Of a stretch of 64,000 nt of DNA, positions 21,401 through 64,000 are shown one piece after another. The notes beneath the pieces are model-generated. The model did not search any database. It saw nothing but the letters and a program-made list of their open reading frames with translations, and was not told where the DNA came from. A program made the translations under genes and the position numbers. Position 1 is the first letter of the stretch. Each line of letters begins with the position of its first letter. Source of the DNA: an uncultured Methanosarcinales archaeon (GTDB taxonomy: Archaea > Nanobdellota > Nanobdellia > Woesearchaeales > ARS49); assembly GCA_964362535.1 (NCBI GenBank), contig CAYIEN010000003.1, forward strand, positions 6,018-70,017. The letters are read 5' to 3'.

Positions 21401-22915
21401 ATGGCAGACAAAAAAGAGGAAAAGAAGGGAGATAAAGGCAAGTCTGACAAGAAGAAAGAAGTTCTCGCAAAAGACTATTTCACCGAATGGGACAGCGTCG
21501 AAATGGCTAAAGACCAAATCGTTACGTACAAAGAAATATATCCCAAACCAGCAAGCCGCTTTCGCGTACTGCTTGAAGCTCCAAACGTCGGCATCGAACC
21601 ACTCTACTTCTGGATGCTCACCCAGTTCCGCGGCATCGGCTATTCAAAAGTAGACAAAATCTCCGACATCTTCAGCGCATCCGAATCATCAAGTCTTTTC
21701 GGCCAAGGACAACAACGACTTGGCGTCACGCAAGATCGAATCATGAGCTTCTTGCGCATCATGCACGACATGATTAAAATCATTCCCAACCAAGTCCGAG
21801 AACTTCGCGTCATCAAAGAACGACTCCAATATTACGATGATTCCTTCAAAAAAGGCGGAAAAGGAGAAGCCGCAGAAAAAATACTGAAAGGACTGTACGT
21901 TGACCTCGTCGAAGGCGGAACAAAATCAGCAAGCAGCGTCTTCGGACTATCACAACAAGTCGGATTCGTTATTCTTCCAGAGCTGTTCTTCCGTGAACGA
22001 CTCGAACCCGGACAAGACGAAAACAAATTCTTCGAATACATCAAAGGACTTGAAAAAGACTTCAACCCGACGGTCATCAACACACTCCAACGAAAACTCT
22101 TACAGTATTACACGTGGAAAACAAGCACGTACAAAGAAATCAAACAACGACAAAAATATTTGCTTACGTACATGAAACAAGTTTACTCAACGGTACGATT
22201 GTACATGCAGTGGACCAAGCCGTATTTGAAATTAGCAAAAAAGATGGGCATCGACATCGACAGCACCGGACGAGCCGAACTCGTGCGTGCGTTCGAAACA
22301 TCCCTCATCGAAGTCGAAATTCTTGCTCGACGCGTCGAAAAAAGCTCGAAGAACGATTCCCCTGACAAAGAAGAACAAACAATCCACAACTGCATGCTCA
22401 TTACGTTCAGCTACCGCACAAAACCCTCCATGTCCTTCGCAACACCCGACTTCCAACACCGCGGACCAACACACGTCGGCGAAGCAGAAATTACGTGGCG
22501 AAGCTACGCATGGAACGATAAGGATTTGCGTAAATACAAAGAACTCAAAGACGCAGAAGACCTCGAACTATTGAAAAGCATGAGCGAAACACTCAAAAGC
22601 TCACTCGAAGGCGTCGAAGACGACTTCAAAGCATTCATCGAAGAAACCGACAAAGAACTTTATCCGCCCAAGAAAGAGGAAGAGCCTGAAAAACCAAGAC
22701 CATTCTTTTCACCCATCACCGACGTCTTCACCGGCATCGGCGGCGTCAGCAAAGAAATAACTGGAGGAGTCGCCGGCATCGCAAAATCATTCTGGCCCCA
22801 AACCCCAAAAGGCAGCAGCAAATCCAGCCGCGACAGCATCGAAAAATCTGCCAAAAAACTCACGTGGTTATGCTACAAAAACTTCAAGAAAAGCTTCGGT
22901 TTAGTTGCCTGGTAG
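21401..22915 (+). CDS. Large hypothetical protein (504 aa), K/E-rich termini, no assignable domain
   Basis: Long uninterrupted ORF, lysine-rich N- and C-termini; no motif recognised. Confidence 0.45.
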   Translation: MADKKEEKKGDKGKSDKKKEVLAKDYFTEWDSVEMAKDQIVTYKEIYPKPASRFRVLLEAPNVGIEPLYFWMLTQFRGIGYSKVDKISDIFSASESSSLFGQGQQRLGVTQDRIMSFLRIMHDMIKIIPNQVRELRVIKERLQYYDDSFKKGGKGEAAEKILKGLYVDLVEGGTKSASSVFGLSQQVGFVILPELFFRERLEPGQDENKFFEYIKGLEKDFNPTVINTLQRKLLQYYTWKTSTYKEIKQRQKYLLTYMKQVYSTVRLYMQWTKPYLKLAKKMGIDIDSTGRAELVRAFETSLIEVEILARRVEKSSKNDSPDKEEQTIHNCMLITFSYRTKPSMSFATPDFQHRGPTHVGEAEITWRSYAWNDKDLRKYKELKDAEDLELLKSMSETLKSSLEGVEDDFKAFIEETDKELYPPKKEEEPEKPRPFFSPITDVFTGIGGVSKEITGGVAGIAKSFWPQTPKGSSKSSRDSIEKSAKKLTWLCYKNFKKSFGLVAW

Positions 22916-22963
22916 CGCTCATAATTCATACATAATATATAGTTTATCGACGTAAAATCGTCT

Positions 22964-23530
22964 ATGGTCCCCATAGATGCGGAACAGCTCAAACAAGAGT
23001 CGCCATCCGAACGCATCAAAGCGATTACTGCGTTGCGCGCAAAGATTGCGGAACGATTAGCATCTTGGCAAGAACAAACCGAAACAGACCTGCAAACACT
23101 TGCGACGCTTGAACAAGACGCCCAACGAGAACTCGCGACCATCACGCGCATCGAAGTCCCAAAGACTCGCGAAATAAAAGTTGAAGAAATCGGCAAGAAA
23201 AAAACATTGGAAGAAACCGTCGCACCCGCAAAAACAACAACCGACCATGCAAACCTACTCCAACACGCGTACGATTTCGCCCACAAACATGCCTACGACA
23301 AAATCGCAGACATCCGCGACAAATTCGCAACCGGTGAAACACTCACCCCCGCAGAAGAACGCACCGCGCAATACTTCGGCGAACTCTTACAATCATTCCA
23401 CAAAGTCTCCTCCTACATCCGAGACGAACAGACAAAAGAGACACTCACCCGTTCAGAAAAAGCAATCCAACAAATGCAAAACAAACATGATACTGATGCA
23501 GAAGAGCCAACAAAACGGCAGGAGTTCTGA
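22964..23530 (+). CDS. Coiled-coil hypothetical protein (188 aa)
   Basis: Heptad-rich, E/K/Q-rich sequence; same strand, closely spaced with flanking large genes. Confidence 0.4.
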   Translation: MVPIDAEQLKQESPSERIKAITALRAKIAERLASWQEQTETDLQTLATLEQDAQRELATITRIEVPKTREIKVEEIGKKKTLEETVAPAKTTTDHANLLQHAYDFAHKHAYDKIADIRDKFATGETLTPAEERTAQYFGELLQSFHKVSSYIRDEQTKETLTRSEKAIQQMQNKHDTDAEEPTKRQEF

Positions 23531-23535
23531 GTAAT

Positions 23536-25509
23536 ATGGCGGGCGACTATTTCAATAACGGATATCTCAACGCCATGGATCGCTTCGAAAAAGAATTTGA
23601 CATCCCTTCCATTTCTGGCAAAGGAGTTCCGAAGCCTGAAGCATTGATTCCTATCCGCGAAATCGGCGTCAGCATCATGGCAACGAGGGATGCAATTCAG
23701 CCCTTGATTGCAAAGATCCGCGAAGGAGCCAGCAAAGTCGAAATCGGATTTATGGGCTCAGGCAAAGGAAGCATCTTCTCCGGCCAAATCACCCCCGAAG
23801 GCGTCGACGCAGAACAACGACAAGCCATTCGCGAAATCGCCAAAATCAACAAAGTCGAACTCAGCACGCACGCTTCCGTCGGAACAGGCGGATTTGCGGG
23901 CTTCACTAACAGAGGATTTGATGACTCGACTCGCGAACAAAACATCCAAGAATTAAAACGAGCAATCGATTTCGCAGCCGATACCGCTCAAGGCGGAGCA
24001 ATCACCGTCCACATGGACGAATTCGTACGACCTATTTCTGAAGTACAAGGCGGATTCTTGGCGCACCCGGATGAAAAGAACACCACAACGTTTTACCTTG
24101 TCAATGAAAAGACGGGCGACATCATCCGAAGCGTCAGCAAAGACGTACCAATCAATACTCCTATCTGGCGAAAAGCCGAAAAAGGAGAAAGGGCAAATGA
24201 ATTCGGAGAAGCACTCGACAATTTTAATAACCGCGTTCCTAAAATCAAAAAAGACGAAAACGGCAACCCAACTGACAAATTTGACATTCAAACACTCAAA
24301 TGGGAAGACAAGAACGCAACGAACGACATTCTCCGCGAAACCGAAAAGCGCAACCGCAACCGTCCAAAAAATGACCAACTTAAACCTGAACAGGTCTATT
24401 ACGAAATTCAAGTCGAATCAAAAAAATATCAGTTGGAAGGAGAACGTCTTTTTCACATGCAAGATTACGACAAACATTTACGTGAGAAAAAAACAATCGA
24501 AAAAAACATTGATGAGCTCAAAGCAGGAAAAACTCTTAAAATTCAAGATGAAGAAACAGGTAAAATAACCGAACAGGAAATTCCTGCAGAACAAAGAAAA
24601 GCACTCATCGAAAAACAGCAGGACCAGCTGTCTCATGTAAACCACCAAATTTCTCGAATAAACAGTGCAGCTATTTCTTACCAAGAACAATTGCAAGAAT
24701 TCGAACAACAAATGAAAAATATCAAGCCCATGGAAAAAGTCGCACTCGGCAAAAGCACAGAAGCACTCGGACGCGCGGGATTGTATGCATACGATGTTGA
24801 GCAGGCAAAAGGACTCAACAAAAATAAAGACAAACCGTTGTTTATCGCCCCCGAAAACCTCTTCGCCGAAAAATACGGCTCGCACCCCGACGAATTGAAA
24901 GCACTCATTGAAGGTTCTCGAGAACAAATGAAAATACTCCTTCAAAAACGCGGAATGAAAGAATCAGAAGCCCAACAAATCGCTGGCGACCACATCAAAG
25001 CAACCCTCGACATCGGACACTTGAACACGTGGCGCAAATACTTCCAAGCAAAAGACGCAAACGAATCCATTGAATCTAGAGACAAACGATTCAACACGTG
25101 GGTCATTGACAAAATTAAAGAGCTTAACAAAGGCAATATTATTGGTCACATCCACATCACGGACAACTTCGGCTACCATGATGAACACTTGACTCCAGGA
25201 CAAGGCAACGCGCCCATCATGGACTTTATCAAAGAGATGCAGAAGCATTTCAAAGACAAGCCACTTGATTTGGTTGTTGAACCCGGCGCTCAAGATCCTG
25301 CCAAACAATACGAAGCGCTCTACGGTGGCTGGAAACTCTTCGGCCACAGCATCTACGGCATCTCTGCACCTGGTAAAAAACCGTTTGACATGGGCGGTCA
25401 GAGAGGTTACTTTGGTACTACGGTTCCTCCGCAGTTCCTGTTCGGCGAAATGGCGCTTTCGGATGACTACCGAGGAAGTCCGTTCTTTACTGGCTTAGGA
25501 CTTGAATAA
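23536..25509 (+). CDS. Xylose-isomerase-like TIM-barrel (AP endonuclease family 2 / sugar-phosphate isomerase-epimerase) protein interrupted by about 330 aa coiled-coil insertion
   Basis: N-terminal barrel strands (VEIGFMG, ELSTHASVG, KRAIDFAADTAQGGAITVHMDEF) and C-terminal (GHIHITDNFGYHDEHLTPGQGNAPIMDFIKEM, LVVEPGAQDP) with metal-ligand His/Asp/Glu pattern; residues about 170-500 K/E-rich. Confidence 0.5.
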   Translation: MAGDYFNNGYLNAMDRFEKEFDIPSISGKGVPKPEALIPIREIGVSIMATRDAIQPLIAKIREGASKVEIGFMGSGKGSIFSGQITPEGVDAEQRQAIREIAKINKVELSTHASVGTGGFAGFTNRGFDDSTREQNIQELKRAIDFAADTAQGGAITVHMDEFVRPISEVQGGFLAHPDEKNTTTFYLVNEKTGDIIRSVSKDVPINTPIWRKAEKGERANEFGEALDNFNNRVPKIKKDENGNPTDKFDIQTLKWEDKNATNDILRETEKRNRNRPKNDQLKPEQVYYEIQVESKKYQLEGERLFHMQDYDKHLREKKTIEKNIDELKAGKTLKIQDEETGKITEQEIPAEQRKALIEKQQDQLSHVNHQISRINSAAISYQEQLQEFEQQMKNIKPMEKVALGKSTEALGRAGLYAYDVEQAKGLNKNKDKPLFIAPENLFAEKYGSHPDELKALIEGSREQMKILLQKRGMKESEAQQIAGDHIKATLDIGHLNTWRKYFQAKDANESIESRDKRFNTWVIDKIKELNKGNIIGHIHITDNFGYHDEHLTPGQGNAPIMDFIKEMQKHFKDKPLDLVVEPGAQDPAKQYEALYGGWKLFGHSIYGISAPGKKPFDMGGQRGYFGTTVPPQFLFGEMALSDDYRGSPFFTGLGLE

Positions 25510-25576
25510 TTCTCGTTTAACTATCAATTAAGAGTGACAAATGTTCTTAAAGCGCCGAAGGAGATTCTGACGTTGG

Positions 25577-26386
25577 ATGGCCGAATTCACGATACACCCG
25601 CGAGAGAACCCTGTTCTGACACTTTATAGCAAAGATGATAGAGAATTGGCTCGCAAGTTCTCGCAAAAGATATACAAAGAATTCGGCAACTTTCTCAAAG
25701 CAGTTGTCTTATTTGGTTCGGCAGCGACCCGCGAAAAACGCTCGGCAGGAAGCGACATCGACATTCTCATCGTCATCGATGACGTCAGCATGCAGCTCAG
25801 CCAAGAACTCATCACCACGTATCGCTTAATTGTTGAAAAGATGGTTGTTGAAACATCTGACAGATTTCACATCACCACATTGCGATTGACCTCGTTCTGG
25901 GAATACATCCGTGCAGGCGACCCCGTCGGTATCAATATCTTGCGTGACGGACTTGCCATCTTAGACACTGGCTTCTTTGATCCTTTACAGATTTTGCTCA
26001 GACAAGGACGCATACGACCCACGCAAGAAAGCGTATGGAACTACTACATGCGTGCTCCGACAACATTGCACAACAGCAAATGGCACGTGTTGCAAGCCAC
26101 CCTTGATCTGTACTGGGCAGCCGTTGACAGCGCACACGCCGCACTGATGCACATCGGAGAAGTCCCGCCAAGCCCCGACCACGTCGCGGACTTACTGGAA
26201 ACCAAATTCGTCAAAACAAAACATCTCGAAGCAAGATACACCCACATCTTCCGTTACCTCTACAACTTGTCAAAGATGATTGTGCATCGTGAAATCAAAG
26301 AAATCAAGGGAGACGAGTACACCAAATACTATCACATGGCAGAAGAATTCGTCGAACGTATGCGCAAAATAGTTGAACAGAAATAA
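25577..26386 (+). CDS. Pol-beta-superfamily nucleotidyltransferase with C-terminal helical (HEPN/KNTase-like) domain
   Basis: GSAATREKRSAGSDIDILIVID (GS-x9-13-DxD) minimal NTase motif; about 150 aa helical C-terminus. Confidence 0.55.
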   Translation: MAEFTIHPRENPVLTLYSKDDRELARKFSQKIYKEFGNFLKAVVLFGSAATREKRSAGSDIDILIVIDDVSMQLSQELITTYRLIVEKMVVETSDRFHITTLRLTSFWEYIRAGDPVGINILRDGLAILDTGFFDPLQILLRQGRIRPTQESVWNYYMRAPTTLHNSKWHVLQATLDLYWAAVDSAHAALMHIGEVPPSPDHVADLLETKFVKTKHLEARYTHIFRYLYNLSKMIVHREIKEIKGDEYTKYYHMAEEFVERMRKIVEQK

Positions 26387-46875: not shown

Positions 46876-47006
46876 CCCCTCCTAGCTCAACGGTGGAGCG
46901 TCCGGCTGTAGACGAAAAGTCACTCGCAGACCATGGTCCCAGGACCAGGAATGAACGCGAGTCAGCAGAACCCGGAAGGCTGCTGGTTCAAATCCGGCGG
47001 AGGGGA
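46876..47006 (+). tRNA. tRNA-Tyr (anticodon GUA) with about 59-nt intron at canonical 37/38 position (46912-46970)
   Basis: Archaeal Tyr identity C1-G72 (CCCCTCC/GGAGGGG), A73; D GCTC/GAGC; anticodon stem TCCGG ... CCGGA split by intron; loop CTGTAG; T arm GCTGG-TTCAAAT-CCGGC. Confidence 0.7.
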
Positions 47007-51205: not shown

Positions 51206-52156
51206 TTAGGCATGTTCTGTTCCGGGGTATCGTATTCGTGGTCTTCCTTGTCCTCGTGTTGTGCGGATGTATTTGCTGAATTCGCACATGCAGTTTTGTA
51301 ATGACATGACGCTGAGTGTTCGTTCATTCATCGGTAAGTCTGTAAGTATTCTTGTTAGGTCTCCGAGGACTCTTTTTTGGTTGTCGCGGAGCCAAAAAAG
51401 CAGTTCTTCATCAGTGAGCCCATCAGTATTGGAGAATAAGTAGCGTAGTCCTTTCTTGCAGCCGGGTCCCGCAACGACAAACTCATTCTCACTGAAAGGA
51501 AACGCAGGAATGTAGGTGAAGTCAACAAATATTTGGTATGCGAGAAAGCGCCCCAGTCCTGGACAGCTTTCCAATGCTTCAAAAACTTCTCGGGGCGTCA
51601 CACTGCGCATTATTCTCCCGATAATGTCCTGCGCTTTGTGCAGTGCAACGAGCCGTATGATGCGAACTGCTTTGTTCGGTTCATTCGAGAAAAGCTTGTT
51701 TGCCGCAGCTTTCGGTCCGCTCGTGAAAAAAGCATTAGAAAACAACACAAACCGCGCACTATCCAATTTCTTTCGAATACTGTCATAAGGTATGTTGTCG
51801 AAATCAACAAGCCCGATGTGCTCTATGGTTTGTGACTTGTTAAACAGACGAAAAAGAATACAGTTGAGAAGCGTGTGCCCATAAGAAAGATTTGTATTTA
51901 GACAAACGTGGTTGATAAGCCAAATCGTTTCTTTGTCCTGTTCGCGCCGCACATTCGTAAACTTGTACTTTTGCAAAATAGGGTCTTGCGTCCACGGCTT
52001 TGGCAAATGTTTTTCTTTCGCAAGCCGAATACGATATCTCTCGCAAACCCAATACGCAAACAACCGCGCTTCCTCAACATTCAAAACCGGCACAGCAACC
52101 CTGATCAGCTCTTTGCGAACCGCACAATACGGAATATCTGCAGATTTCAATTGCAT
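51206..52156 (-). CDS. Hypothetical protein (316 aa), W/F/Y-rich conserved blocks; no confident family assignment
   Basis: Blocks PWTQDPILQKYKFTNVRREQDKET, GLGRFLAYQIFVDFTY, FVVAGPGCKKGLRYLF; in operon with NDT-like and SET genes. Confidence 0.4.
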   Translation of the reverse strand: MQLKSADIPYCAVRKELIRVAVPVLNVEEARLFAYWVCERYRIRLAKEKHLPKPWTQDPILQKYKFTNVRREQDKETIWLINHVCLNTNLSYGHTLLNCILFRLFNKSQTIEHIGLVDFDNIPYDSIRKKLDSARFVLFSNAFFTSGPKAAANKLFSNEPNKAVRIIRLVALHKAQDIIGRIMRSVTPREVFEALESCPGLGRFLAYQIFVDFTYIPAFPFSENEFVVAGPGCKKGLRYLFSNTDGLTDEELLFWLRDNQKRVLGDLTRILTDLPMNERTLSVMSLQNCMCEFSKYIRTTRGQGRPRIRYPGTEHA

Positions 52157-52219
52157 AAAAAAACAATACCCAAGAACAGATTAAATAACTTACTTGTCAG
52201 GATGGGTAAAGATCGCGCA

Positions 52220-52417
52220 TCACAACTTGTGCATCTTCTTAGCAACAATGGTCAATATTCCTGCAAATAACAGTGTGGTGAATGAAACAAGTATTATGCG
52301 CCACACTTCAGACATTCCGATTGGTTTGAGAATGAACTGGTGCAAAAGAACTACTAAAACGATATCAATAACCCAAATGAGCAAGTAACGCGAATGCGAT
52401 TTCTTACGTGCCATCAT
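52220..52417 (-). CDS. Small 2-TM membrane protein (65 aa)
   Basis: Hydrophobic helices; within operon. Confidence 0.3.
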   Translation of the reverse strand: MMARKKSHSRYLLIWVIDIVLVVLLHQFILKPIGMSEVWRIILVSFTTLLFAGILTIVAKKMHKL

Positions 52418-52445
52418 CCGTTAGTGTTCTTTTTGATTTATAAGA

Positions 52446-52835
52446 TTATCTCTCAAGATGAACCGCGTTTTTGAACAGTTCTATGTTGTTGAGCGGGATA
52501 ATCCCTGCTGCGAAAGTGTCGATTGCGATGTCTTTTGTTGGTTCCGAGAAATAAACAGGTTTTTTGAGTGCGAGCGCGTATCCAAGCTCGATTTTAAGGC
52601 TTGTTCCGATGTATCCTTCTGGAACAATAAAGTAAACAGCATCGCACTTCTCAATTGCCTCGTAGTATTCTAACGCTAGTCTCTTTTTTGTTTCAGGACT
52701 GTCAGCCACATCACGATTTTCCGATATTTGATCAACATTCGGACACAACGGCTGCAAACCTAACTCATTCATACACTTTATCGTCGCTTTCACCACATCA
52801 CGAAAACGCATACTCGAACCGATCAAAATTTTCAT
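52446..52835 (-). CDS. Nucleoside 2-deoxyribosyltransferase-like (Rcl/DNPH1-type N-glycosidase fold) protein
   Basis: CDAVYFIVPEGYIGTSLKIELGYALALKKPVY matches the family's flavodoxin-like catalytic core (E in xELG, GKP). Confidence 0.5.
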   Translation of the reverse strand: MKILIGSSMRFRDVVKATIKCMNELGLQPLCPNVDQISENRDVADSPETKKRLALEYYEAIEKCDAVYFIVPEGYIGTSLKIELGYALALKKPVYFSEPTKDIAIDTFAAGIIPLNNIELFKNAVHLER

Positions 52836-54097
52836 AATTTCTCCACTACTTGGTTTTCATCTTCATAAACGATTTTTCCCAGCGCATCTTTAGAAGATGC
52901 TTCTGATTTAATATTCGAAAGATACTTTTTGTGTGAAAGCAACAACGTTTTCTCGTACGTCGCTTTACCCTTTTTGGTAAGATAGAATCTATACTTGCCT
53001 TTTGGAAGCGTTGGCTTAACAAGCCACTTCTTTCGTTCCAACACTTCATTTATGAGAGTTTCTGGAAGTAATCGTTTGCCTGCGGAAAAGACTCCTTCGC
53101 CATTCGTTGTGAAGCGATAAAGTTGCATTTTCTGCCGTTCAATAATGAATGGTGGAACAACGCCAAGTTGAATGTATTTTTTTTGCAGTGCTTTTGTTAG
53201 TGTTCCAAACGATGCAATAGTTTTGCGACACTTTTTATTTCCGCAGGCGCACTTCATTGTTTCGTTATCCGCAATTGCAGTTGAATAGTCATATGTAATT
53301 TCTTCTCCTGATTTTATGTATTTTATTGCAATGAGACTGGCAGTTTTGCCATGAATCTTTTGTCCTGCATTCGGATTACAAGAATGATTCACGAAGTCCT
53401 CCACGTCGTGCGCCGGACCAATCCACAAGGTTTCCGAAATTTGTGCAGAATGAGCACGTACGCTTTGCGGTTCACGCATCATTTGCACATTCGTCATCAA
53501 TTTACCCGTATACCGAAAAATAACCTCTCCTTTCTTGAAATCACGATTCGCAAAAACACCCTTGCCCGCAGTCTTGGACTTTTTTACTAGCAAAGGCTCA
53601 TACTTCCAACGCTTATTTACCGTTGCCATGAGTTTTTCGTATTTCGCAAAAGAACCAAGCTTTGCGCTTTTTCTTCGTGCATCCAGCCCTTTGCGGTCAG
53701 CAATAGGTCTCGCAATAAAAATGCCTTTCGGAGCATAAAACTGTGTTCCGTACACTTGTTTCTTGCCTGAATTGACCAGAACTCTATCCGTTAAAAACGC
53801 CAGACTTCCTTTGTCTGCTTGTTTTTCTTTCACTGCTTTTTGTAGTAGTTTGAGGCATTTCTTTTGGAATGCGAGATTGTAATCCGCGTGCTGTAAGATT
53901 AGCCAGGCAGCAATGGAGCCCTTCCTGCCCACTAATTTGTATGTTGGCCAGCCAAATTCATTAACAATTTTGACCAACACCTTCGCGTGCCTCTTATCCA
54001 TTTCCGGATCCCACTTACCACCCTTCCCCGCAGCAGTACGCATCTTCACGTCAGCCTTCATCATGCGAAGAAGCTCAAAATGGAGTTTGTGGTTCAT
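52832..54097 (-). CDS. SET-domain lysine methyltransferase-like protein with post-SET Cys cluster and unassigned N-/C-terminal domains
   Basis: GKGVFANRDFKKGEVIFRYTG, NHSCNPN, EITYDYS, post-SET CACGNKKCR. Confidence 0.7.
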   Translation of the reverse strand: MNHKLHFELLRMMKADVKMRTAAGKGGKWDPEMDKRHAKVLVKIVNEFGWPTYKLVGRKGSIAAWLILQHADYNLAFQKKCLKLLQKAVKEKQADKGSLAFLTDRVLVNSGKKQVYGTQFYAPKGIFIARPIADRKGLDARRKSAKLGSFAKYEKLMATVNKRWKYEPLLVKKSKTAGKGVFANRDFKKGEVIFRYTGKLMTNVQMMREPQSVRAHSAQISETLWIGPAHDVEDFVNHSCNPNAGQKIHGKTASLIAIKYIKSGEEITYDYSTAIADNETMKCACGNKKCRKTIASFGTLTKALQKKYIQLGVVPPFIIERQKMQLYRFTTNGEGVFSAGKRLLPETLINEVLERKKWLVKPTLPKGKYRFYLTKKGKATYEKTLLLSHKKYLSNIKSEASSKDALGKIVYEDENQVVEKL

Positions 54098-57776: not shown

Positions 57777-59591
57777 TTATCTCTTCATGATGTAAAGTTG
57801 CATTGGCACATTTCGAGTATCTCCGCCTTTGTAATCAATAGACTCAATTTTCATGGAGTGCTCTTTGGCCCAACTTTGCATGTGTTGTTCTTGTGCTTGT
57901 TCTGTTTTGAGCATGTGAGTATATCTTTTTTCTGAGAGAGGGCTGACGTTTAACGTCACGCCAATCATTCCCGGCTGCTTCAAATGAGCATACGCAAGTT
58001 CGAGTTCTCGCAATCCTGAAGGAGACAGGTGTCCGAGCCAGTCCAAAAATACCAAGTCAAACTGTTTGTTCGTTTTTTGTAGTGCTTCTTCTGCGCTTGA
58101 AAGTACGAGTTCGAGTCGTGAAAGGCGGCTTTCTTTAAGCAAGGAGTTTACTTTGCGCAGACTCTTGATGCGCGACATAACGTTGTATGCTCGTTCATCA
58201 CGTTCTGGAACAAGCGAGGTTCGTGAATCAATGTTCAATTTTTGTGCGAGAGCAAAATAGCTTCCGAATGTTGGGCCTTCAAGACCGAAATAAGAAATGC
58301 GTTTGTCTTTGAGAAATGAGTGTGCTTGTTCTGCAAAAATGTCTCGGATTTCTTGTTTTTCTCCATTCTTGAACGCATAGTATCCGAGAGGACTTAAGTC
58401 AATACCTTGCGCGCCAAGATGTTGATGAATGACGAACGCATCATACTTTCCTTCCCATCGGCTCTGTCTGTTTGCGCTCGTACCGTTAAAAAGTGTTGGA
58501 GTAACGAACGGTTTGACTGTTGCAAATTCTTTGTCATTCGTAACAAGGTCCATGATTGCCTCAACGTTACCTCCATAAGCACACGTGAGCATTCCCGCAA
58601 GAGTCGTTCCCCAGCGATTAATTGGCTTGCGAAAAAACGATTCTTCCGTTAGTACAGGTAAGATTTTTTTGAATCCAGAAACCATTTTAGGATTTACACC
58701 ATTCTCTTTTCCAAGAACCATGACGAGTGTTTTTGTTGCTTCGCGAGCAATAAGTGTCGGTTTTCCTTTTTTCTGCCACGTGTTTGCTGCTGCTTTAGGA
58801 AAGTCGTATGCTTGGAGGTCGCGGAAGTTTGCAAAGTCAGGATTGTGTGCAATCATGTCGAGAACGGCGTCGCTGGGACTGTTGTGATACGCACTGTGGA
58901 GTGTGCCGCAAAGGTTGGTTTCCCAGCGATTGATAGGTAGTGTGCGGAAGTTTACGGCAGTGAGTTCGGGAAGGATTGTTTTGAAGCCTTCGAGTGTGCG
59001 AACGTCAACGTTTTTGATCTTGCCAAGTTGGTAAATAAATTGTGTGGTTGCTTTTCGTGCAAGGTCTGTTGGTTTTCCTTCGTGACGCCATGCTTTAACG
59101 GGGGCTTTAGGAAAGTCGTAAGAACGTAAGTCGCGAACGTGTTTGAACTCATTGTCGTGCGTGACGAGGTCGAGTATTGCGTCGATGCAGCTTGCGCCGT
59201 ACGCTCTGTTCATCTGTCCAAGAAGCGTCGTACCCCACTTGTTAATGGGTGTATGCATGAACGATTCAGAAGTCAAGAAAGGAAGAACAGCTTTGAACCC
59301 GGCAAAAGTAGTATAATCAACTTTTTGTTCTTGCGCAACACGTTGAACTAGTGTTTTTGTGGCGAGCTGCGCATACGAAAGCCCAGGACGATCGCTCCCT
59401 TTCCAAACATTCTTCGTACCAGGAAAATCAAAAGGCCGCACCTCAATATGTCTTGCTTGCAGCATGCGTGACAATTCTTCCGCTTCATCAAGATGCAACT
59501 GAATGCCTAGAGACTTAACCACCTGCGGCCCCTCAAGAACAACCTGCTCAACAAGCGCGTCAAGACAGACCTCAACATGGCGTTTCGTCAT
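57777..59591 (-). CDS. Large protein with three about 90 aa tandem repeats and C-terminal class I SAM-methyltransferase-like (O-MTase family 3-like) domain
   Basis: Repeats (F/L)xGFKxxLPxLTxxxFxxxPINxWxTxLxGxxxxAYxxxxxDAxLDxxxHxxxFxxxRDLxxYDFPKA x3; C-term FDLVFLDWLGHLSPSGLRELELAYAHLKQPGMIGV resembles FDxIFIDAdK...L(k/r)pGG(l/v)i motif IV-VI. Confidence 0.45.
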   Translation of the reverse strand: MTKRHVEVCLDALVEQVVLEGPQVVKSLGIQLHLDEAEELSRMLQARHIEVRPFDFPGTKNVWKGSDRPGLSYAQLATKTLVQRVAQEQKVDYTTFAGFKAVLPFLTSESFMHTPINKWGTTLLGQMNRAYGASCIDAILDLVTHDNEFKHVRDLRSYDFPKAPVKAWRHEGKPTDLARKATTQFIYQLGKIKNVDVRTLEGFKTILPELTAVNFRTLPINRWETNLCGTLHSAYHNSPSDAVLDMIAHNPDFANFRDLQAYDFPKAAANTWQKKGKPTLIAREATKTLVMVLGKENGVNPKMVSGFKKILPVLTEESFFRKPINRWGTTLAGMLTCAYGGNVEAIMDLVTNDKEFATVKPFVTPTLFNGTSANRQSRWEGKYDAFVIHQHLGAQGIDLSPLGYYAFKNGEKQEIRDIFAEQAHSFLKDKRISYFGLEGPTFGSYFALAQKLNIDSRTSLVPERDERAYNVMSRIKSLRKVNSLLKESRLSRLELVLSSAEEALQKTNKQFDLVFLDWLGHLSPSGLRELELAYAHLKQPGMIGVTLNVSPLSEKRYTHMLKTEQAQEQHMQSWAKEHSMKIESIDYKGGDTRNVPMQLYIMKR

Positions 59592-59792
59592 TCCGCATCA
59601 CCCAGAATGTCAATGGTGAGCTTTACGACCTTTCCAGGGCCGAGCTCGCGCTGCAAGAGCGCGGGGATGACAATGATTGCCTGCCTTCCATGCTTGGCGA
59701 TTCTTTTGGTGATGGTGTACTGCATCATTGCTGTATGGGCTATACATCACCCTTTATAAAGTTACTCCTCCGAAGTAACAAATAAGCAAAGA

Positions 59793-59801
59793 TTTATAAA
59801 G
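59793..59801 (+). promoter_or_regulatory. TATA box (TTTATAAAG) for the MoxR/GXGXG operon; leaderless
   Basis: 22-26 nt upstream of ATG 59823. Confidence 0.5.
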
Positions 59802-59822
59802 GTCTCTTGGTTTTTGTCGTCT

Positions 59823-60341
59823 ATGGTCGGTTTTGACAAGAAGGAAAAGGAAGAGTTTGGCGTTCGCCACGCGAAGCCCGGACAATGGTACCAGTACGGC
59901 CAGTATGGTCAAGCTGACGATCTCGGCAGATTCTTGAGAATTGATGAAATGCACGCCTACTTCGACGAAACCATAGCCGAAGTCCATCGCGCTGACGGCA
60001 TGGAATGCATCACTCGCAAAGGAGAAATCGCCGTAAACCTCCAAGCAATCACCGACTTCTTCCCATCAAACCAAGAAGAAATACAACTCTGGCTCGGATA
60101 CCGCAACTGGCACCGACAATACCTCAACGAATTCGTCGCCATCAACATACCACAAATGGAACCAACAGTCGGCAAAGTCGTCAAAGCATACCGCAGCGCA
60201 TTCCACCTCAAACCATTCATCAGCGGAATCAGCACCAGAGAACTCATCGAAAACAAAGAAAAAATAGTCATCTTCAACACACCAGCAAGCATCGAAACCA
60301 TCACCAAAGAACAACTCGAACGATTCATAGCACACATCTGA
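59823..60341 (+). CDS. Hypothetical protein (173 aa), first gene of operon
   Basis: ORF-track start 59814 is TTG; ATG at 59823; no motif. Confidence 0.45.
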   Translation: MVGFDKKEKEEFGVRHAKPGQWYQYGQYGQADDLGRFLRIDEMHAYFDETIAEVHRADGMECITRKGEIAVNLQAITDFFPSNQEEIQLWLGYRNWHRQYLNEFVAINIPQMEPTVGKVVKAYRSAFHLKPFISGISTRELIENKEKIVIFNTPASIETITKEQLERFIAHI

Positions 60342-60351
60342 GGTAACAATC

Positions 60352-60900
60352 ATGACAAACGAATACCGTATTTACCGATACGACAAATGCACAAAACCAA
60401 GCAAAGGAAAAGAAGTACTCCTAACTGACGCAACAAACCGAGTTATCACTTTTCACAACCTTGTTAGCGATGCCCCTACTGATGTCAAAGCACTTTACGA
60501 AGTTCCCGTTGAAGTAGCAAAAGGAAACGCGCTTCACCACATTCCATCTAGAACTTATCCGCTGGAACCAATGGACATGATTCAGCCAGGACACTACTTC
60601 CGAATCAACTACATCCACACCCCGAACAACTTGACACCGCAAGACTACGGCATACCCAGCGACAACACATCCTTCCGAGTCCATGCAGTCAAAACTATCC
60701 CTGAAAAAGCATTTGAACAGCTTAAACAAGCATGCATCGCAAGCGCCAAGGAATGGTCTGCCCAATACCGCACAAAAACCAAATCGATTAACGCACAAAT
60801 TGCGGCAACAGAAAAACTCCTCAAAACACAAAACGCACAAAAAGACAAAATCGGACAAACCCACAATAAGGAATACCCAACACTCGAAAACCTACTCTAA
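60352..60900 (+). CDS. Hypothetical protein (182 aa), paralog A (N-terminal MTNEYR-YxYD...KGK..LTDATNR.ITF, C-terminal coiled coil)
   Basis: Tandem paralog of next gene. Confidence 0.45.
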   Translation: MTNEYRIYRYDKCTKPSKGKEVLLTDATNRVITFHNLVSDAPTDVKALYEVPVEVAKGNALHHIPSRTYPLEPMDMIQPGHYFRINYIHTPNNLTPQDYGIPSDNTSFRVHAVKTIPEKAFEQLKQACIASAKEWSAQYRTKTKSINAQIAATEKLLKTQNAQKDKIGQTHNKEYPTLENLL

Positions 60901-60908
60901 AAACGACC

Positions 60909-61463
60909 ATGACAAACAACGAATACCGCCTGTACCAATACGACAACTTTAAAGCAGTAAGCAAGGGCAAGAGTGCCGTACTGACTGATGCTACCAACCG
61001 CATTATCACTTTCGAAATACCAAGACGAGGCATCTTGCCGCTCGTTCAGGTTCTCCACAAAATTCCTACAGAAGTCATGGAACGAAAACTCAGTACTGGA
61101 AGCACAAGAATTCCTTCAGAAGAATACTGTACAGAAATACTGCAGCCCGGAGAATTCTTCCGCATCGGCTACCGCCCATCACTCAGCGAATGCTATGGTG
61201 ACGACGCCTACTCCCGAGTCCACACCGTCAAAAATCTCACTCCCGAAGAACTCAAAACAATCCAACAATCCTACGACTCAAGCCTCAAAAACTGGGAAGA
61301 CCACTACGAACGTCTTACCGAAGCACTCAACGCAAAAATTGAGGAAGCAGAAAAAGTTTTGAAAACTTCCGAAAAAGAACTCAACAAAATAACCACAGCA
61401 CACCGCAAACTCCAACCACAACTCGAAGACGTCCTCAAAGGCATTTGGAAACCATTTAAATAA
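60909..61463 (+). CDS. Hypothetical protein (184 aa), paralog B of previous gene
   Basis: Shares N-terminal block MTNNEYRLYQYD...SKGKSAVLTDATNRIITF. Confidence 0.45.
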   Translation: MTNNEYRLYQYDNFKAVSKGKSAVLTDATNRIITFEIPRRGILPLVQVLHKIPTEVMERKLSTGSTRIPSEEYCTEILQPGEFFRIGYRPSLSECYGDDAYSRVHTVKNLTPEELKTIQQSYDSSLKNWEDHYERLTEALNAKIEEAEKVLKTSEKELNKITTAHRKLQPQLEDVLKGIWKPFK

Positions 61464-61472
61464 AAAACTACC

Positions 61473-62765
61473 ATGGCAAACACTCTCCGCGACAAAGTCA
61501 TTGCATTGTACCGCAAGATTGGCGACTACCATTACGCTCCTGTTGATGGCAATGTTAACGGCAAACATTTTTCTACAAATCACGCATTAACAGCATTGAC
61601 CTTTTTGATGAACAAGACGCAATTAGCTCTCGGAGATCCCGGATGGGGTAAAACAACGGGAGCACAAGTCATTTCGAGCTTGTTCTCAGGACTCCCTTTC
61701 GATCTTTATCAAAGACTCATGATGAAGGGTCACCCAGGACAGTACGAAGAAAAATTGGTTGCTCGACCGCACTTCGGAGCCTTGTCTAAAGGTGACGAGC
61801 GAGTCGTGTGGCAAGGATACATCGGCATGGACGCCCTCATCGTTGATGAAATCAAGCACTTGCCCAAAGAAACACAAGCATTACTCTTAGAAGGCATCAG
61901 AACAGGAACGTGGACTTATTTGAACGATTCCATTGTCGAAGGAGAAAAACCCACCTACTTCACCTCTAACGATTGGGGCGAGGCTAACGGCGAAATCATG
62001 GAAGCACTCGCAGACCGAATCGCCGTAGTCATCGAAGAAAAAGCACTCCCTCCTCAACTTGATTTTGAATTAGCGGATGAAAGAGTCAAGAAAGACCTCT
62101 CGCGACCTGATGAAGCACAGCAATGCATTGATGAACTCGCAAAAAACAACTTCCAAGGCTTCAAAACCACTCTTGATTCAGTACGCAAAACTGGTTTGGC
62201 AAAAAATGACGCCGAAAAAGTCCGCACCGAAATCAAAAGCATGAAGCAGACATCCAACGACACCCACTACTTCCTGTGGGGATTGGCTTCAGAAATTAAC
62301 TTCTCTGAACAATACGGAGTCAAACGCGCACGAGACGCCGTCAGCGACCACACACATGACAAAAAGTATGCGGGAGTCAAGATGGCACGAAGCATGAGCC
62401 CACGACCCTTAATGGCAGCATGGCAGTACGCCCAAGGATTAGCTTGGCTTCTCGGAGACAAAACCGTCGACGTCAGCCACCTACAAACAATCATCCCTCA
62501 CGTACTCGCTCACCGTTCTAAATTCTCTAACGACTTCAAAAACTCGCATACTGGTGACGTTCGCAAAGATTATCAAGAACTACACCTTGCAAAAACACTC
62601 GTGAAGGAATACTTCGAAGGAACCTACACCAATTCTGTACTCAAAGTAAAGTCGGCAATCGAGGCTATCCAAAAAGGCCAGAAAATCAACGCAAAAGGCG
62701 CTGACCACCCGCTCGTACGGCAACTGGACTACTGGAACCAGAACATGCCGCAGAGCAACATTTGA
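61473..62765 (+). CDS. MoxR-like AAA+ ATPase
   Basis: Walker A LALGDPGWGKTT, Walker B LIVDEIKHLPKETQALLLEGIRTGTW (MoxR-type DEINRAPPKTQSALLEAMQE pattern), sensor region. Confidence 0.6.
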   Translation: MANTLRDKVIALYRKIGDYHYAPVDGNVNGKHFSTNHALTALTFLMNKTQLALGDPGWGKTTGAQVISSLFSGLPFDLYQRLMMKGHPGQYEEKLVARPHFGALSKGDERVVWQGYIGMDALIVDEIKHLPKETQALLLEGIRTGTWTYLNDSIVEGEKPTYFTSNDWGEANGEIMEALADRIAVVIEEKALPPQLDFELADERVKKDLSRPDEAQQCIDELAKNNFQGFKTTLDSVRKTGLAKNDAEKVRTEIKSMKQTSNDTHYFLWGLASEINFSEQYGVKRARDAVSDHTHDKKYAGVKMARSMSPRPLMAAWQYAQGLAWLLGDKTVDVSHLQTIIPHVLAHRSKFSNDFKNSHTGDVRKDYQELHLAKTLVKEYFEGTYTNSVLKVKSAIEAIQKGQKINAKGADHPLVRQLDYWNQNMPQSNI

Positions 62766-63478
62766 AACTAGCCGACTTAGTGGGAAATCTGTCTCCTGAA
62801 GAAAAATTCGAAAAGAACACGTTCGTTCCTGACAAAAACAGCCTTCAAAAGATCATAGATATTTATGACAAAAGCATTCAGTTGTCGTTCACTAATGATG
62901 ATGCACGAGTACAGCACGTAACGCGTGAACTTTCTACTGTGGAAGACTTACCACACGAATACTTACAATTAATCTCCGAACGCATTCCTGAACCGAGAGA
63001 TCATCGAATAAGTGATTTTCTTGGAGCTGTTTGCAAAAAGCTTATTGGAAATCCTACACTTATTCTTCATGAATTAAGATGGCGCTTCGGAGACAAACTT
63101 GATATCGGCGACAGAATCGTTACCGTTATTGGAAACGTTTCAGTTCTAGGTTCATGCATGCAATCAGGAACAATTCATTTGAAAGGATATGTGAACAGCG
63201 CAGGAACAGGAATGTATGGCGGGAAATTACTCGTTGAAGACACCTCATTTCAAACGGGACCTGGAATGCGAGGTGGTCACATTTACGTTAAAGGAGATAG
63301 CCATCACGTAGCCTGGGAAGCAACAGGAGGAACAATAACCTGCTATGGCGAAGCAACCGGACATTTAGGATACAAATCACACTCAGGCTGCACAATACAC
63401 CTTCAAGGAAACCAAATACCACTTATTGATAACGAGTGCAAAGCAACAATCTATCACCGAGGAAGGAAACTTCAATGA
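62762..63478 (+). CDS. GXGXG-motif beta-helix domain protein (glutamate synthase C-terminal / FwdC-like fold) with N-terminal unassigned about 110 aa
   Basis: Five successive G-x-x-M/x-x-GG-x-I-x-V/L-x-G turns: GSCMQSGTIHLKG, GTGMYGGKLLVE, GPGMRGGHIYVKG, ATGGTITCYG, SHSGCTIHLQG; ATGA overlap with AAA+ gene. Confidence 0.55.
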   Translation: MKLADLVGNLSPEEKFEKNTFVPDKNSLQKIIDIYDKSIQLSFTNDDARVQHVTRELSTVEDLPHEYLQLISERIPEPRDHRISDFLGAVCKKLIGNPTLILHELRWRFGDKLDIGDRIVTVIGNVSVLGSCMQSGTIHLKGYVNSAGTGMYGGKLLVEDTSFQTGPGMRGGHIYVKGDSHHVAWEATGGTITCYGEATGHLGYKSHSGCTIHLQGNQIPLIDNECKATIYHRGRKLQ

Positions 63479-64000
63479 AACTCGCAGACCTCGTAGGACA
63501 ACTCCGGTCGGAAGAACGTGTTGAGATGCGGGAAGTTCCGCGAATACCTTGCACATTTGACAACATTATGCAAGCATATTTGGAAAGCCGCAATATATAT
63601 GAACACGCATCTAATTCGTGGCAGCGTGACCTGCAAGGGGGATATATTCGTGAAGCTTTAGGAAAAATCGATGATGTTGAAGGTCAGTACTGGCAGCTTT
63701 TTTACGATCAAATTACCGCAAAAAAAATGAGAGGTCGTGAAGAACTTTTCTTTGATAGATTTATAGACGAACTTTGTCGGCATGTCTCCGATAAATCAGT
63801 AATTCATCTTAAAAAAGACACATACAACTTTGGAACAGGAATATCAACGGGAAAGACGATTACTATTACTGGAAATGTCGTTAATCTCTGCACTCGAATG
63901 CAATCAGGAACTATTCATTTTAATGGGAATGTTCAGGATGCCGGACGGTCAATGTTGGGCGGCAACCTCAAGGTCCAAAGCAAAAACACTCTTATGAGTT
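63475..64000 (+). CDS. GXGXG beta-helix protein, tandem paralog (3' partial, runs off window)
   Basis: Same N-terminus MKLADLVG... and CTRMQSGTIHFNG, GRSMLGGNLKVQS turns; ATGA overlap with previous. Confidence 0.5.
   Translation, partial: MKLADLVGQLRSEERVEMREVPRIPCTFDNIMQAYLESRNIYEHASNSWQRDLQGGYIREALGKIDDVEGQYWQLFYDQITAKKMRGREELFFDRFIDELCRHVSDKSVIHLKKDTYNFGTGISTGKTITITGNVVNLCTRMQSGTIHFNGNVQDAGRSMLGGNLKVQSKNTLMS

Follow-up and report, generated by a model that had tools for sequence, protein, structure and literature searches.

Which partner does a MoxR-class AAA+ ATPase serve when no gene for a VWA-domain protein is found beside it? The question is raised by the right-hand end of a 64,000-nucleotide stretch (hereafter the window) of contig CAYIEN010000003.1, from an uncultured Methanosarcinales archaeon. 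Six plus-strand open reading frames (ORFs), named O1 to O6, are tightly packed across 59.8-64.0 kb of the window: three small genes (O1-O3), the ATPase gene (O4) and two tandem paralogs with a GXGXG beta-helix (O5, O6). A preliminary description of the locus had proposed a self-contained six-gene system in which a VWA-less ATPase is partnered by the GXGXG proteins. The analysis of 40 distinct related MoxR loci, collected by genome and metagenome scans and contig look-ups, points with high confidence to another architecture, in which the ATPase, a VWA protein with an HExxH motif and a translationally coupled array of GXGXG paralogs form a conserved system, mainly of DPANN archaea.

The ATPase and its VWA partner

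From profile matches and a predicted structure, O4 is assigned to the MoxR class as a divergent AAA+ ATPase, and it is the conserved core of the system. It passes the AAA_lid_2 cut-off (E-value 5.6e-6, 26.4 bits against 22.7) and stays under that of AAA_5 (18.4 bits against 22), a profile that matches all 27 O4 relatives with a best E-value of 2.5e-11. The Walker A and Walker B residues listed in Table 1 are invariant in 27 sequences, as are N166, D181-R182 and R311. Judged by position, N166, R182 and R311 would be the sensor 1 asparagine, the arginine finger and the sensor 2 arginine, which together with the Walker motifs would give O4 the set expected of an active ATPase. The AlphaFold2 (AF2) model of O4 has a predicted local distance difference test (pLDDT) score of 79, and its best Foldseek match in the PDB is MoxR 2r44 (CHU_0153) at 1.7e-12, followed by RavA, MCM and BchI. 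A conserved segment, residues 86-118, falls in a low-confidence region of the model and is taken to be the helix-2 insert. Neither single-sequence nor profile searches of the PDB yielded a useful match for O4, an exact look-up of its sequence found nothing, and weak nSTAND3 matches fall on the P-loop of the ATPase itself. The MoxR-like identity first proposed for O4 is thus upheld by AAA_lid_2, by the invariant motifs and by the fold. The family is small, with 26 clusters of 38-48% identity among 5.8 billion proteins.

The related loci originate mostly from metagenome-assembled genomes (MAGs) of Micrarchaeota and Woesearchaeota, with one from Methanosarcinales and one on a short, probably misbinned contig. 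Wherever the downstream sequence is usable (27 of 27 loci), the gene next to the ATPase encodes a GXGXG or a VWA protein, and the linkage between MoxR and GXGXG genes noticed in the window is therefore genuine. A VWA protein of 570-620 aa is encoded in all 11 loci with at least 5 kb of downstream sequence. These loci thus keep the classical pairing of MoxR with VWA, to which the GXGXG array adds a third component. The reported lack of a VWA gene holds inside the window, whereas it does not hold for the relatives; the idea that GXGXG proteins take the place of the VWA partner fails on the same 11 informative loci, all of which carry a VWA protein with an intact metal ion-dependent adhesion site (MIDAS).

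Two gene orders were found, M-V-Gn and M-Gn-V-Gn (M, MoxR; V, VWA; G, GXGXG), and in the latter the VWA gene comes after 1-6 paralogs. The gene order of the window locus, with 4 paralogs so far, places it in the M-Gn-V-Gn type. The window is cut before the position at which relatives carry the VWA gene, and its VWA-less look is therefore best explained by truncation. The absence of the gene is almost certainly an artefact of this kind, and the gene should lie a few kb past the window.

The MIDAS residues of the VWA protein (D366-x-S368-x-S370, T432 and D494) are invariant in 10 sequences, and 9 of these 10 proteins match the VWA_2 profile, in each case under its gathering score. For the VWA protein, too, the PDB searches yielded no useful match. 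Its N-terminal part carries the motif H69-E70-x-x-H73, in the form HE(I/V/F)(G/S)HY, which is kept in 9 of the 10 sequences. No transmembrane segments were predicted in any component, all of which are soluble.

A variant represented on 15 contigs (L054) has a clear ATPase and VWA protein; the four next genes (318-389 aa) barely match the GXGXG profile and are followed by a classical AAA gene. It may be a further subtype. About one third of the ATPase-bearing contigs end within 150 nt past the ATPase gene and others end inside the array (L007, L009, L016, L018, L023, L025, L027, L037, L040, L044, L047 and L048; also L019). The paralog arrays seem to break short-read assemblies, and the system is probably under-counted in MAGs.

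GXGXG arrays and a proposed docking tag

O5 (recorded as protein P0027) and O6 are classified, on profile and model evidence, as probable GXGXG beta-helix proteins of the FwdC/GltS type. O5 matches TIGR03122 at 5e-8, although its 32.5 bits lie far below the curated cut-off of 130.65; it matches PF01493 at E=0.098 and FwdC in the PDB at 5e-7. Paralogs of locus L001, at 42.8 and 36.7 bits, exceed the Pfam threshold of PF01493 (32.5 bits). The AF2 model of O5 (pLDDT 82), built from a 5-sequence alignment, consists of a four-helix domain (residues 25-93) and a right-handed beta-helix (residues 99-232), preceded by disordered residues 1-19 (pLDDT <50). Profile, PDB and fold matches thus agree with the original recognition of tandem GXGXG paralogs. 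Homologue search by word index is weak for these proteins: O5 retrieved itself alone, and a 56-sequence profile gave 4 proteins.

The array continues on contig L019 (3183 bp), which is equivalent to window positions 62324-65506 with 1 mismatch in 1677 nt. This contig completes O6 and adds O7 and O8, which confirms that the operon runs past the window and extends the array to at least 4 paralogs. O6 proves to be 249 aa long, not 238 aa as had been stated for both proteins, while O7 has 236 aa and O8 at least 193 aa. Beyond the start of O5, the genes O5-O8 are all linked by ATGA overlaps. O5, O6 and O8 begin with MKLADLVGxL, and O7 begins with the near variant MKTLANDLVGRL.

In sequence and fold, the paralogs come closest to FwdC, FhcC and the C-terminal domain of GltS, and MoxR-VWA pairs often serve in the maturation of metalloenzymes (PMC9976466). 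Accordingly, the locus could be thought to encode maturation factors and structural subunits of an enzyme related to formylmethanofuran dehydrogenase or glutamate synthase. This is very unlikely, however, as no FwdA/B/D, FMN-domain or clear amidotransferase gene was found in the window or beside the 40 loci, where one neighbour alone gave a weak GATase match. The score of O5 against the FwdC family is far too low, and up to 16 paralogs are implausible for an enzyme subunit. The related loci, lacking catalytic partner genes, are thus not a glutamate synthase or Fwd cluster; the preliminary description had named an annotated glutamate synthase cluster as an example of a finding fatal to its proposal. 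Unlike FwdC, FhcC and the GltS domain (PF01493), moreover, the paralogs have an extra N-terminal tag and a helical domain, and they occur as tandem arrays with variable numbers of rungs and without catalytic partner subunits.

The number of paralogs ranges from 1 to 11 per locus, with 10-11 in L015, L026 and L041, and a groundwater contig of 12,980 bp (L051) consists of nothing but 16 consecutive GXGXG paralogs. The tag variant of L051, MKLTxIIxxEY, is the nearest to the MKLADLVG type of the window. Aligned across the family, the paralogs show four parts. The N-terminal motif has a near-invariant Phe, replaced by Val in the window lineage and by Ile or Leu in L051; the helical domain is poorly conserved; the rungs of the beta-helix vary in number; and the C-terminal strand has the consensus G-x-IYHKGK-LI. 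The tag is acidic (family consensus F-x5-E; MKLADLVGxL..EE in the window lineage), and three clade-specific forms were recognized, LKAxDLFDxL..EE, AxxRFGRYxxE and LxVNPFxG. Within loci, tag motifs share an identity of 0.61 and the remaining sequence one of 0.32; the corresponding values between loci are 0.26 and 0.23. When the within-locus comparison is broken down by region, the tag (identity 0.48) and the C-tail (0.45) are more alike than the beta-helix (0.32) and the helical domain (0.26).

Since the tag is disordered and acidic, is kept uniform within each genome and varies together with the machine, we infer that the paralogs are clients which share a docking peptide. The explanation that best accommodates the data, held with moderate confidence, is a three-component machine of MoxR, HExxH-VWA and GXGXG array, in which the paralogs are the machine's own clients. 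In characterized couples, the MoxR hexamer ring is plugged by one VWA monomer whose finger sits in the pore, and surface carboxylates of the target are required (PMC9976466, PMC13036017). The vWA domains of MoxR-vWA systems are thought to capture a peptide, which MoxR then releases in an altered state (PMC7159879). Here, the MoxR ring would team with one VWA adaptor, as in NorQ-NorD, and the MIDAS site of the adaptor would capture the acidic N-terminal tag of each GXGXG paralog. Hydrolysis of ATP would then remodel, release or assemble the paralogs, which may also be trimmed or otherwise processed through the conserved HExxH motif. The docking of the tag onto the VWA-MoxR machine is, taken by itself, a reasonable proposal that could fall either way.

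The comparison with NorQ/NorD, CbbQ/CbbO and RavA/ViaA is instructive in both directions. As in these couples, the gene for a MoxR-class AAA+ ATPase is accompanied by one for a VWA protein with a complete MIDAS, and the pair probably acts as a hexamer and adaptor remodelling a carboxylate-bearing target (PMC9976466, PMC13036017). In contrast to them, the ATPase is too divergent for sequence searches to find a solved relative, the HExxH domain at the N-terminus of the VWA protein is new, and the presumed clients are 1-16 co-encoded tagged paralogs, not one unlinked enzyme.

Several observations weigh against parts of this explanation. The ATPase is distributed sporadically (13 of about 185,000 species genomes), a pattern more in keeping with an accessory function than with a core structural one. 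For the HExxH domain, no match was found in Pfam, NCBIfam or the PDB, nor to any peptidase family. In the window genome, no VWA gene is seen up to window-equivalent position 65506. Alternatively, the partner of the tag could be the ATPase, or the tag could bring paralogs into contact with each other. A copy number of 1-16 speaks against a complex of fixed composition, and so does the finding that 66 of 96 paralogs have their best match within their own locus (28-63% identity). The latter indicates lineage-specific tandem expansions and not a fixed set of subunits, and a fixed-stoichiometry complex of positionally orthologous subunits was rejected for this reason.

As to what the MoxR-VWA machine would make of its clients, a cytoplasmic multi-subunit beta-helical assembly is the product we lean towards, a structural role that is tentative at best. 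Coupled co-expression, conserved termini and a scaffold-type fold are the points in its favour. Gas-vesicle clusters with GvpN offer a working analogy for such a role: there, a MoxR-class ATPase accompanies a set of small structural paralogs, which together form a single cytoplasmic assembly. Gas-vesicle clusters are not known to include a VWA partner, their gene set is fairly fixed, and no relation to Gvp proteins in sequence or fold is known.

MoxR-VWA couples are widespread, and the client is known for few of them. With presumed clients that are co-encoded, present in many copies and marked by a tag co-varying with the machine, the system could serve as a test bed for the substrate choice of VWA adaptors. 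At 10-15 kb it is a large investment for a DPANN genome of roughly 1 Mb, and the thing that it builds or senses probably matters for the symbiotic lifestyle of these archaea.

A possible role in conflict, and novelty

The same MoxR-VWA core occurs in the ternary conflict systems described by Kaur et al. in 2020 (PMC7159879), which also combine it with a variable third partner. An anti-virus or anti-host system of this type would use the paralogs as diversified sensors or decoys, the MoxR-VWA pair as a threshold switch and the HExxH domain as a proteolytic effector. The sporadic distribution, the lineage-specific expansions of 1-16 copies and the helical domain as the most variable part of the paralogs are all compatible with such a role. 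A peptidase-like motif on the vWA protein also has parallels, as some vWA components of ternary systems carry peptidase domains (PMC7159879). Some neighbours point the same way: L014 has a Fic/DOC-family gene as the immediate upstream neighbour of the ATPase, L037 has a gene for an inosine-uridine nucleoside hydrolase that overlaps the beginning of the ATPase gene, an integrase and a PrimPol/D5 helicase are encoded upstream in the P0007 contig, and a lower-GC stretch with a 5-hmdU DNA kinase is found nearby in the window.

On the other side, PADLOC recognized no component (O1, O2, O4, O5 and O6 gave no match, and O3 coiled-coil noise), and no relative was found on viral contigs. The Micrarchaeota locus is syntenic with housekeeping genes (GluRS, ribonucleotide reductase) and does not lie in a variable island. 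Furthermore, no recognised toxic effector is present, the paralogs are all co-expressed at full length, and none of the third components by which the published ternary systems are defined is present. In place of VMAP, iSTAND, FtsH or beta-propeller type neighbours, the third partner is a GXGXG array; effector-associated domains are missing, the gene order differs, and small DPANN-type archaea take the place of multicellular bacteria as hosts. Taken together, a conflict system is somewhat unlikely, though well short of dismissal. A more specific form, in which the arrays are co-expressed and rapidly diversifying beta-helix recognition modules, loaded by their genome-specific tags onto a MoxR-VWA-metalloprotease switch in a new kind of immune or host-interaction system confined to ultra-small DPANN archaea, is a shade less probable still. 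A viral origin of the system was rejected, given that no relative lies on viral contigs and that PHROGs gave no matches.

The earlier claim of an undescribed system survives in part. Neither PADLOC, PHROGs nor curated families contain a match to the system, and no paper was found that links GXGXG proteins to MoxR or VWA, or that describes a system of this kind from DPANN archaea, although literature coverage was incomplete and this is not proof. The composition originally proposed did not survive, as the informative related loci encode a VWA protein and O1-O3 are not parts. The system is apparently rare and not described in the literature. Its components are of known kinds, and what appears to be new is the three-part architecture, the arrays of tagged paralogs and the HExxH-VWA fusion.

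The transcription unit, the small genes O1-O3 and their surroundings

The window is chromosomal archaeal DNA, with genes for split rpoB, rpoA', EF-1alpha, EF-2 and SufB and an intron-containing tRNA. Table 1 lists the features of the transcription unit together with those of related loci mentioned in the text. The intergenic gaps between O1 and O4 measure 10, 8 and 9 nt and give way to 4-nt overlaps, TTGA at O4/O5 and ATGA at O5/O6. These overlaps would amount to translational coupling, which implies joint production of the GXGXG paralogs. The word TTTATAAA occurs 11 times in the window, as against 1.3 expected, and not once within 59802-64000. With a TATA box of sequence TTTATAAAG placed 26 nt before the likely start codon of O1, a single leaderless archaeal promoter serving all six genes is therefore plausible. 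ORF spacing, the position of this box and the TTTATAAA count thus agree with six compact plus-strand genes behind one leaderless promoter, as first described.

Table 1. Features of the window and of related loci. Positions are those of the window unless a contig is named.
Feature	Position	Strand	Remarks
tRNA gene	46876-47006	+	131 nt
Minus-strand gene cluster	51206-54097	-	lower-GC stretch
Minus-strand gene pair with its TATA copy	57777-59761	-	46-aa ORF and 604-aa gene
46-aa ORF	59588-59728	-	stop overlaps start of 604-aa gene
Second palindromic TATA copy CTTTATAAAG	59752-59761		opposite orientation; ~29 nt before 46-aa ORF
TATA box TTTATAAAG	59793-59801	+	from sequence; centre 26 nt before ATG 59823
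O1	59814-60341 as ORF	+	172 aa; likely true start ATG 59823
O2	60352-60900	+	182 aa
O3	60909-61463	+	184 aa
O4, putative MoxR-class AAA+ ATPase	61473-62765	+	430 aa
Walker A of O4, GDPGWGKTT (residues 54-62)	61632-61658	+	G54, P56, G57, K60, T61, T62 invariant
Walker B of O4, ALIVDE	61833-61850	+	D125, E126 invariant
O5, putative GXGXG paralog 1	62762-63478	+	238 aa; TTG start overlaps O4 stop
N-terminal tag of O5, MKLADLVGNLSPEEKFEKN	62762-62818	+	proposed docking peptide; motif common to O5-O8
O6, putative GXGXG paralog 2	63475-64000	+	cut by window end; 249 aa in full
A3 family, upstream of ATPase	L003 7447-8037; L008 870-1277; L012 9450-9893		examples; 9 more
Fic/DOC-family gene	L014 8884-9873		
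Nucleoside hydrolase gene	L037 8856-9998		
16 GXGXG paralogs	L051 1-12980		
Variant locus	L054 4300-10619		variant on 15 contigs

O1 is a soluble protein encoded in the same transcription unit as the ATPase. O2 consists of a globular N-terminal part and a C-terminal coiled coil, and it shares 40% identity with O3, so that the two small tandem proteins are indeed paralogs, as had been noted. Apart from coiled-coil noise, O1-O3 have no family match in Pfam, NCBIfam, PADLOC or PHROGs, and no homologue was detected in any related MoxR locus. A search of 1.84 billion representatives with an O2/O3 profile gave 4 matches in all, namely a close orthologue, a fragment identical to part of O2, a coiled-coil match and a convincing remote relative. 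By these searches, the O3 family appears to be nearly an orphan.

The close orthologue (P0032) lies in a sister genome, at locus L049, where an O1' protein (82% identical to O1) is encoded with a single O2/O3-like gene. These are followed in the same direction by homologues of a 46-aa ORF and a 604-aa gene, with no ATPase downstream, whereas in the window the 46-aa and 604-aa genes lie divergently upstream of O1-O3. The remote relative (P0035, locus L050) has no MoxR gene nearby either. The differences between O1 and O3 and their L049 orthologues fall on third codon positions in 45 of 79 and 79 of 130 cases, a bias from which O1 and O3 can be taken as real coding genes. Because O1-O3 have no homologue in related loci and another context in L049, they are best regarded as lineage-specific passengers that joined the transcription unit, not as parts of the MoxR system. 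Their earlier standing as system components is accordingly lost. The same applies to the emphasis placed on the duplication of two components in one operon: that of O2/O3 is private to this lineage, and the GXGXG copies belong to arrays of 1-16.

A self-contained six-gene system, with O1-O3 as components and a VWA-less MoxR protein coupled to GXGXG partners, is consistent with the one promoter and the tight packing, and 2-3 small genes precede the ATPase in Micrarchaeota-type loci too. These small genes, however, proved unrelated to O1-O3 by hhalign, and the VWA protein of all informative loci, the missing homologues of O1-O3, the 46-aa/604-aa module after the O1-O3 pair of L049 and the isolated remote relative all speak against it. 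The six-gene proposal can hardly be credited, even less than the enzyme subunits considered above.

In the Micrarchaeota-type loci, the ATPase gene is immediately preceded by the gene for a conserved helical protein (125-145 aa, alignment A3), for which no family match was found. The A3 protein may be a fourth component of this subtype. Homology between O1-O3 and the A3 family was rejected, with an hhalign probability of <1%.

Upstream of the transcription unit, the minus-strand pair begins behind the second TATA copy, CTTTATAAAG. An AbrB-like identity of its 46-aa ORF found no support in Pfam; in the product of the 604-aa gene, a unit of ~110 aa is repeated three times, and the C-terminus weakly resembles methyltransferases. 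Over O1-O3 and over the genes at 21.4-25.5 kb (60000-62000 and 22000-26000), the coding strand is A-/C-rich, unlike the rest of the window, with an AT skew of 0.32-0.35 and a GC skew of about -0.2.

Farther upstream, the minus-strand cluster combines a 5-hmdU DNA kinase (1e-67) with a nucleoside 2-deoxyribosyltransferase-like protein and a DUF6624+SET-domain protein. The GC content of the surrounding stretch, which starts just past three tRNA genes, is lower (0.38-0.42 against about 0.46), so that the cluster could be a genomic island or a module for DNA modification. The 131-nt tRNA gene was detected by Rfam and missed by ARAGORN; it presumably contains an intron, an archaeal mark.

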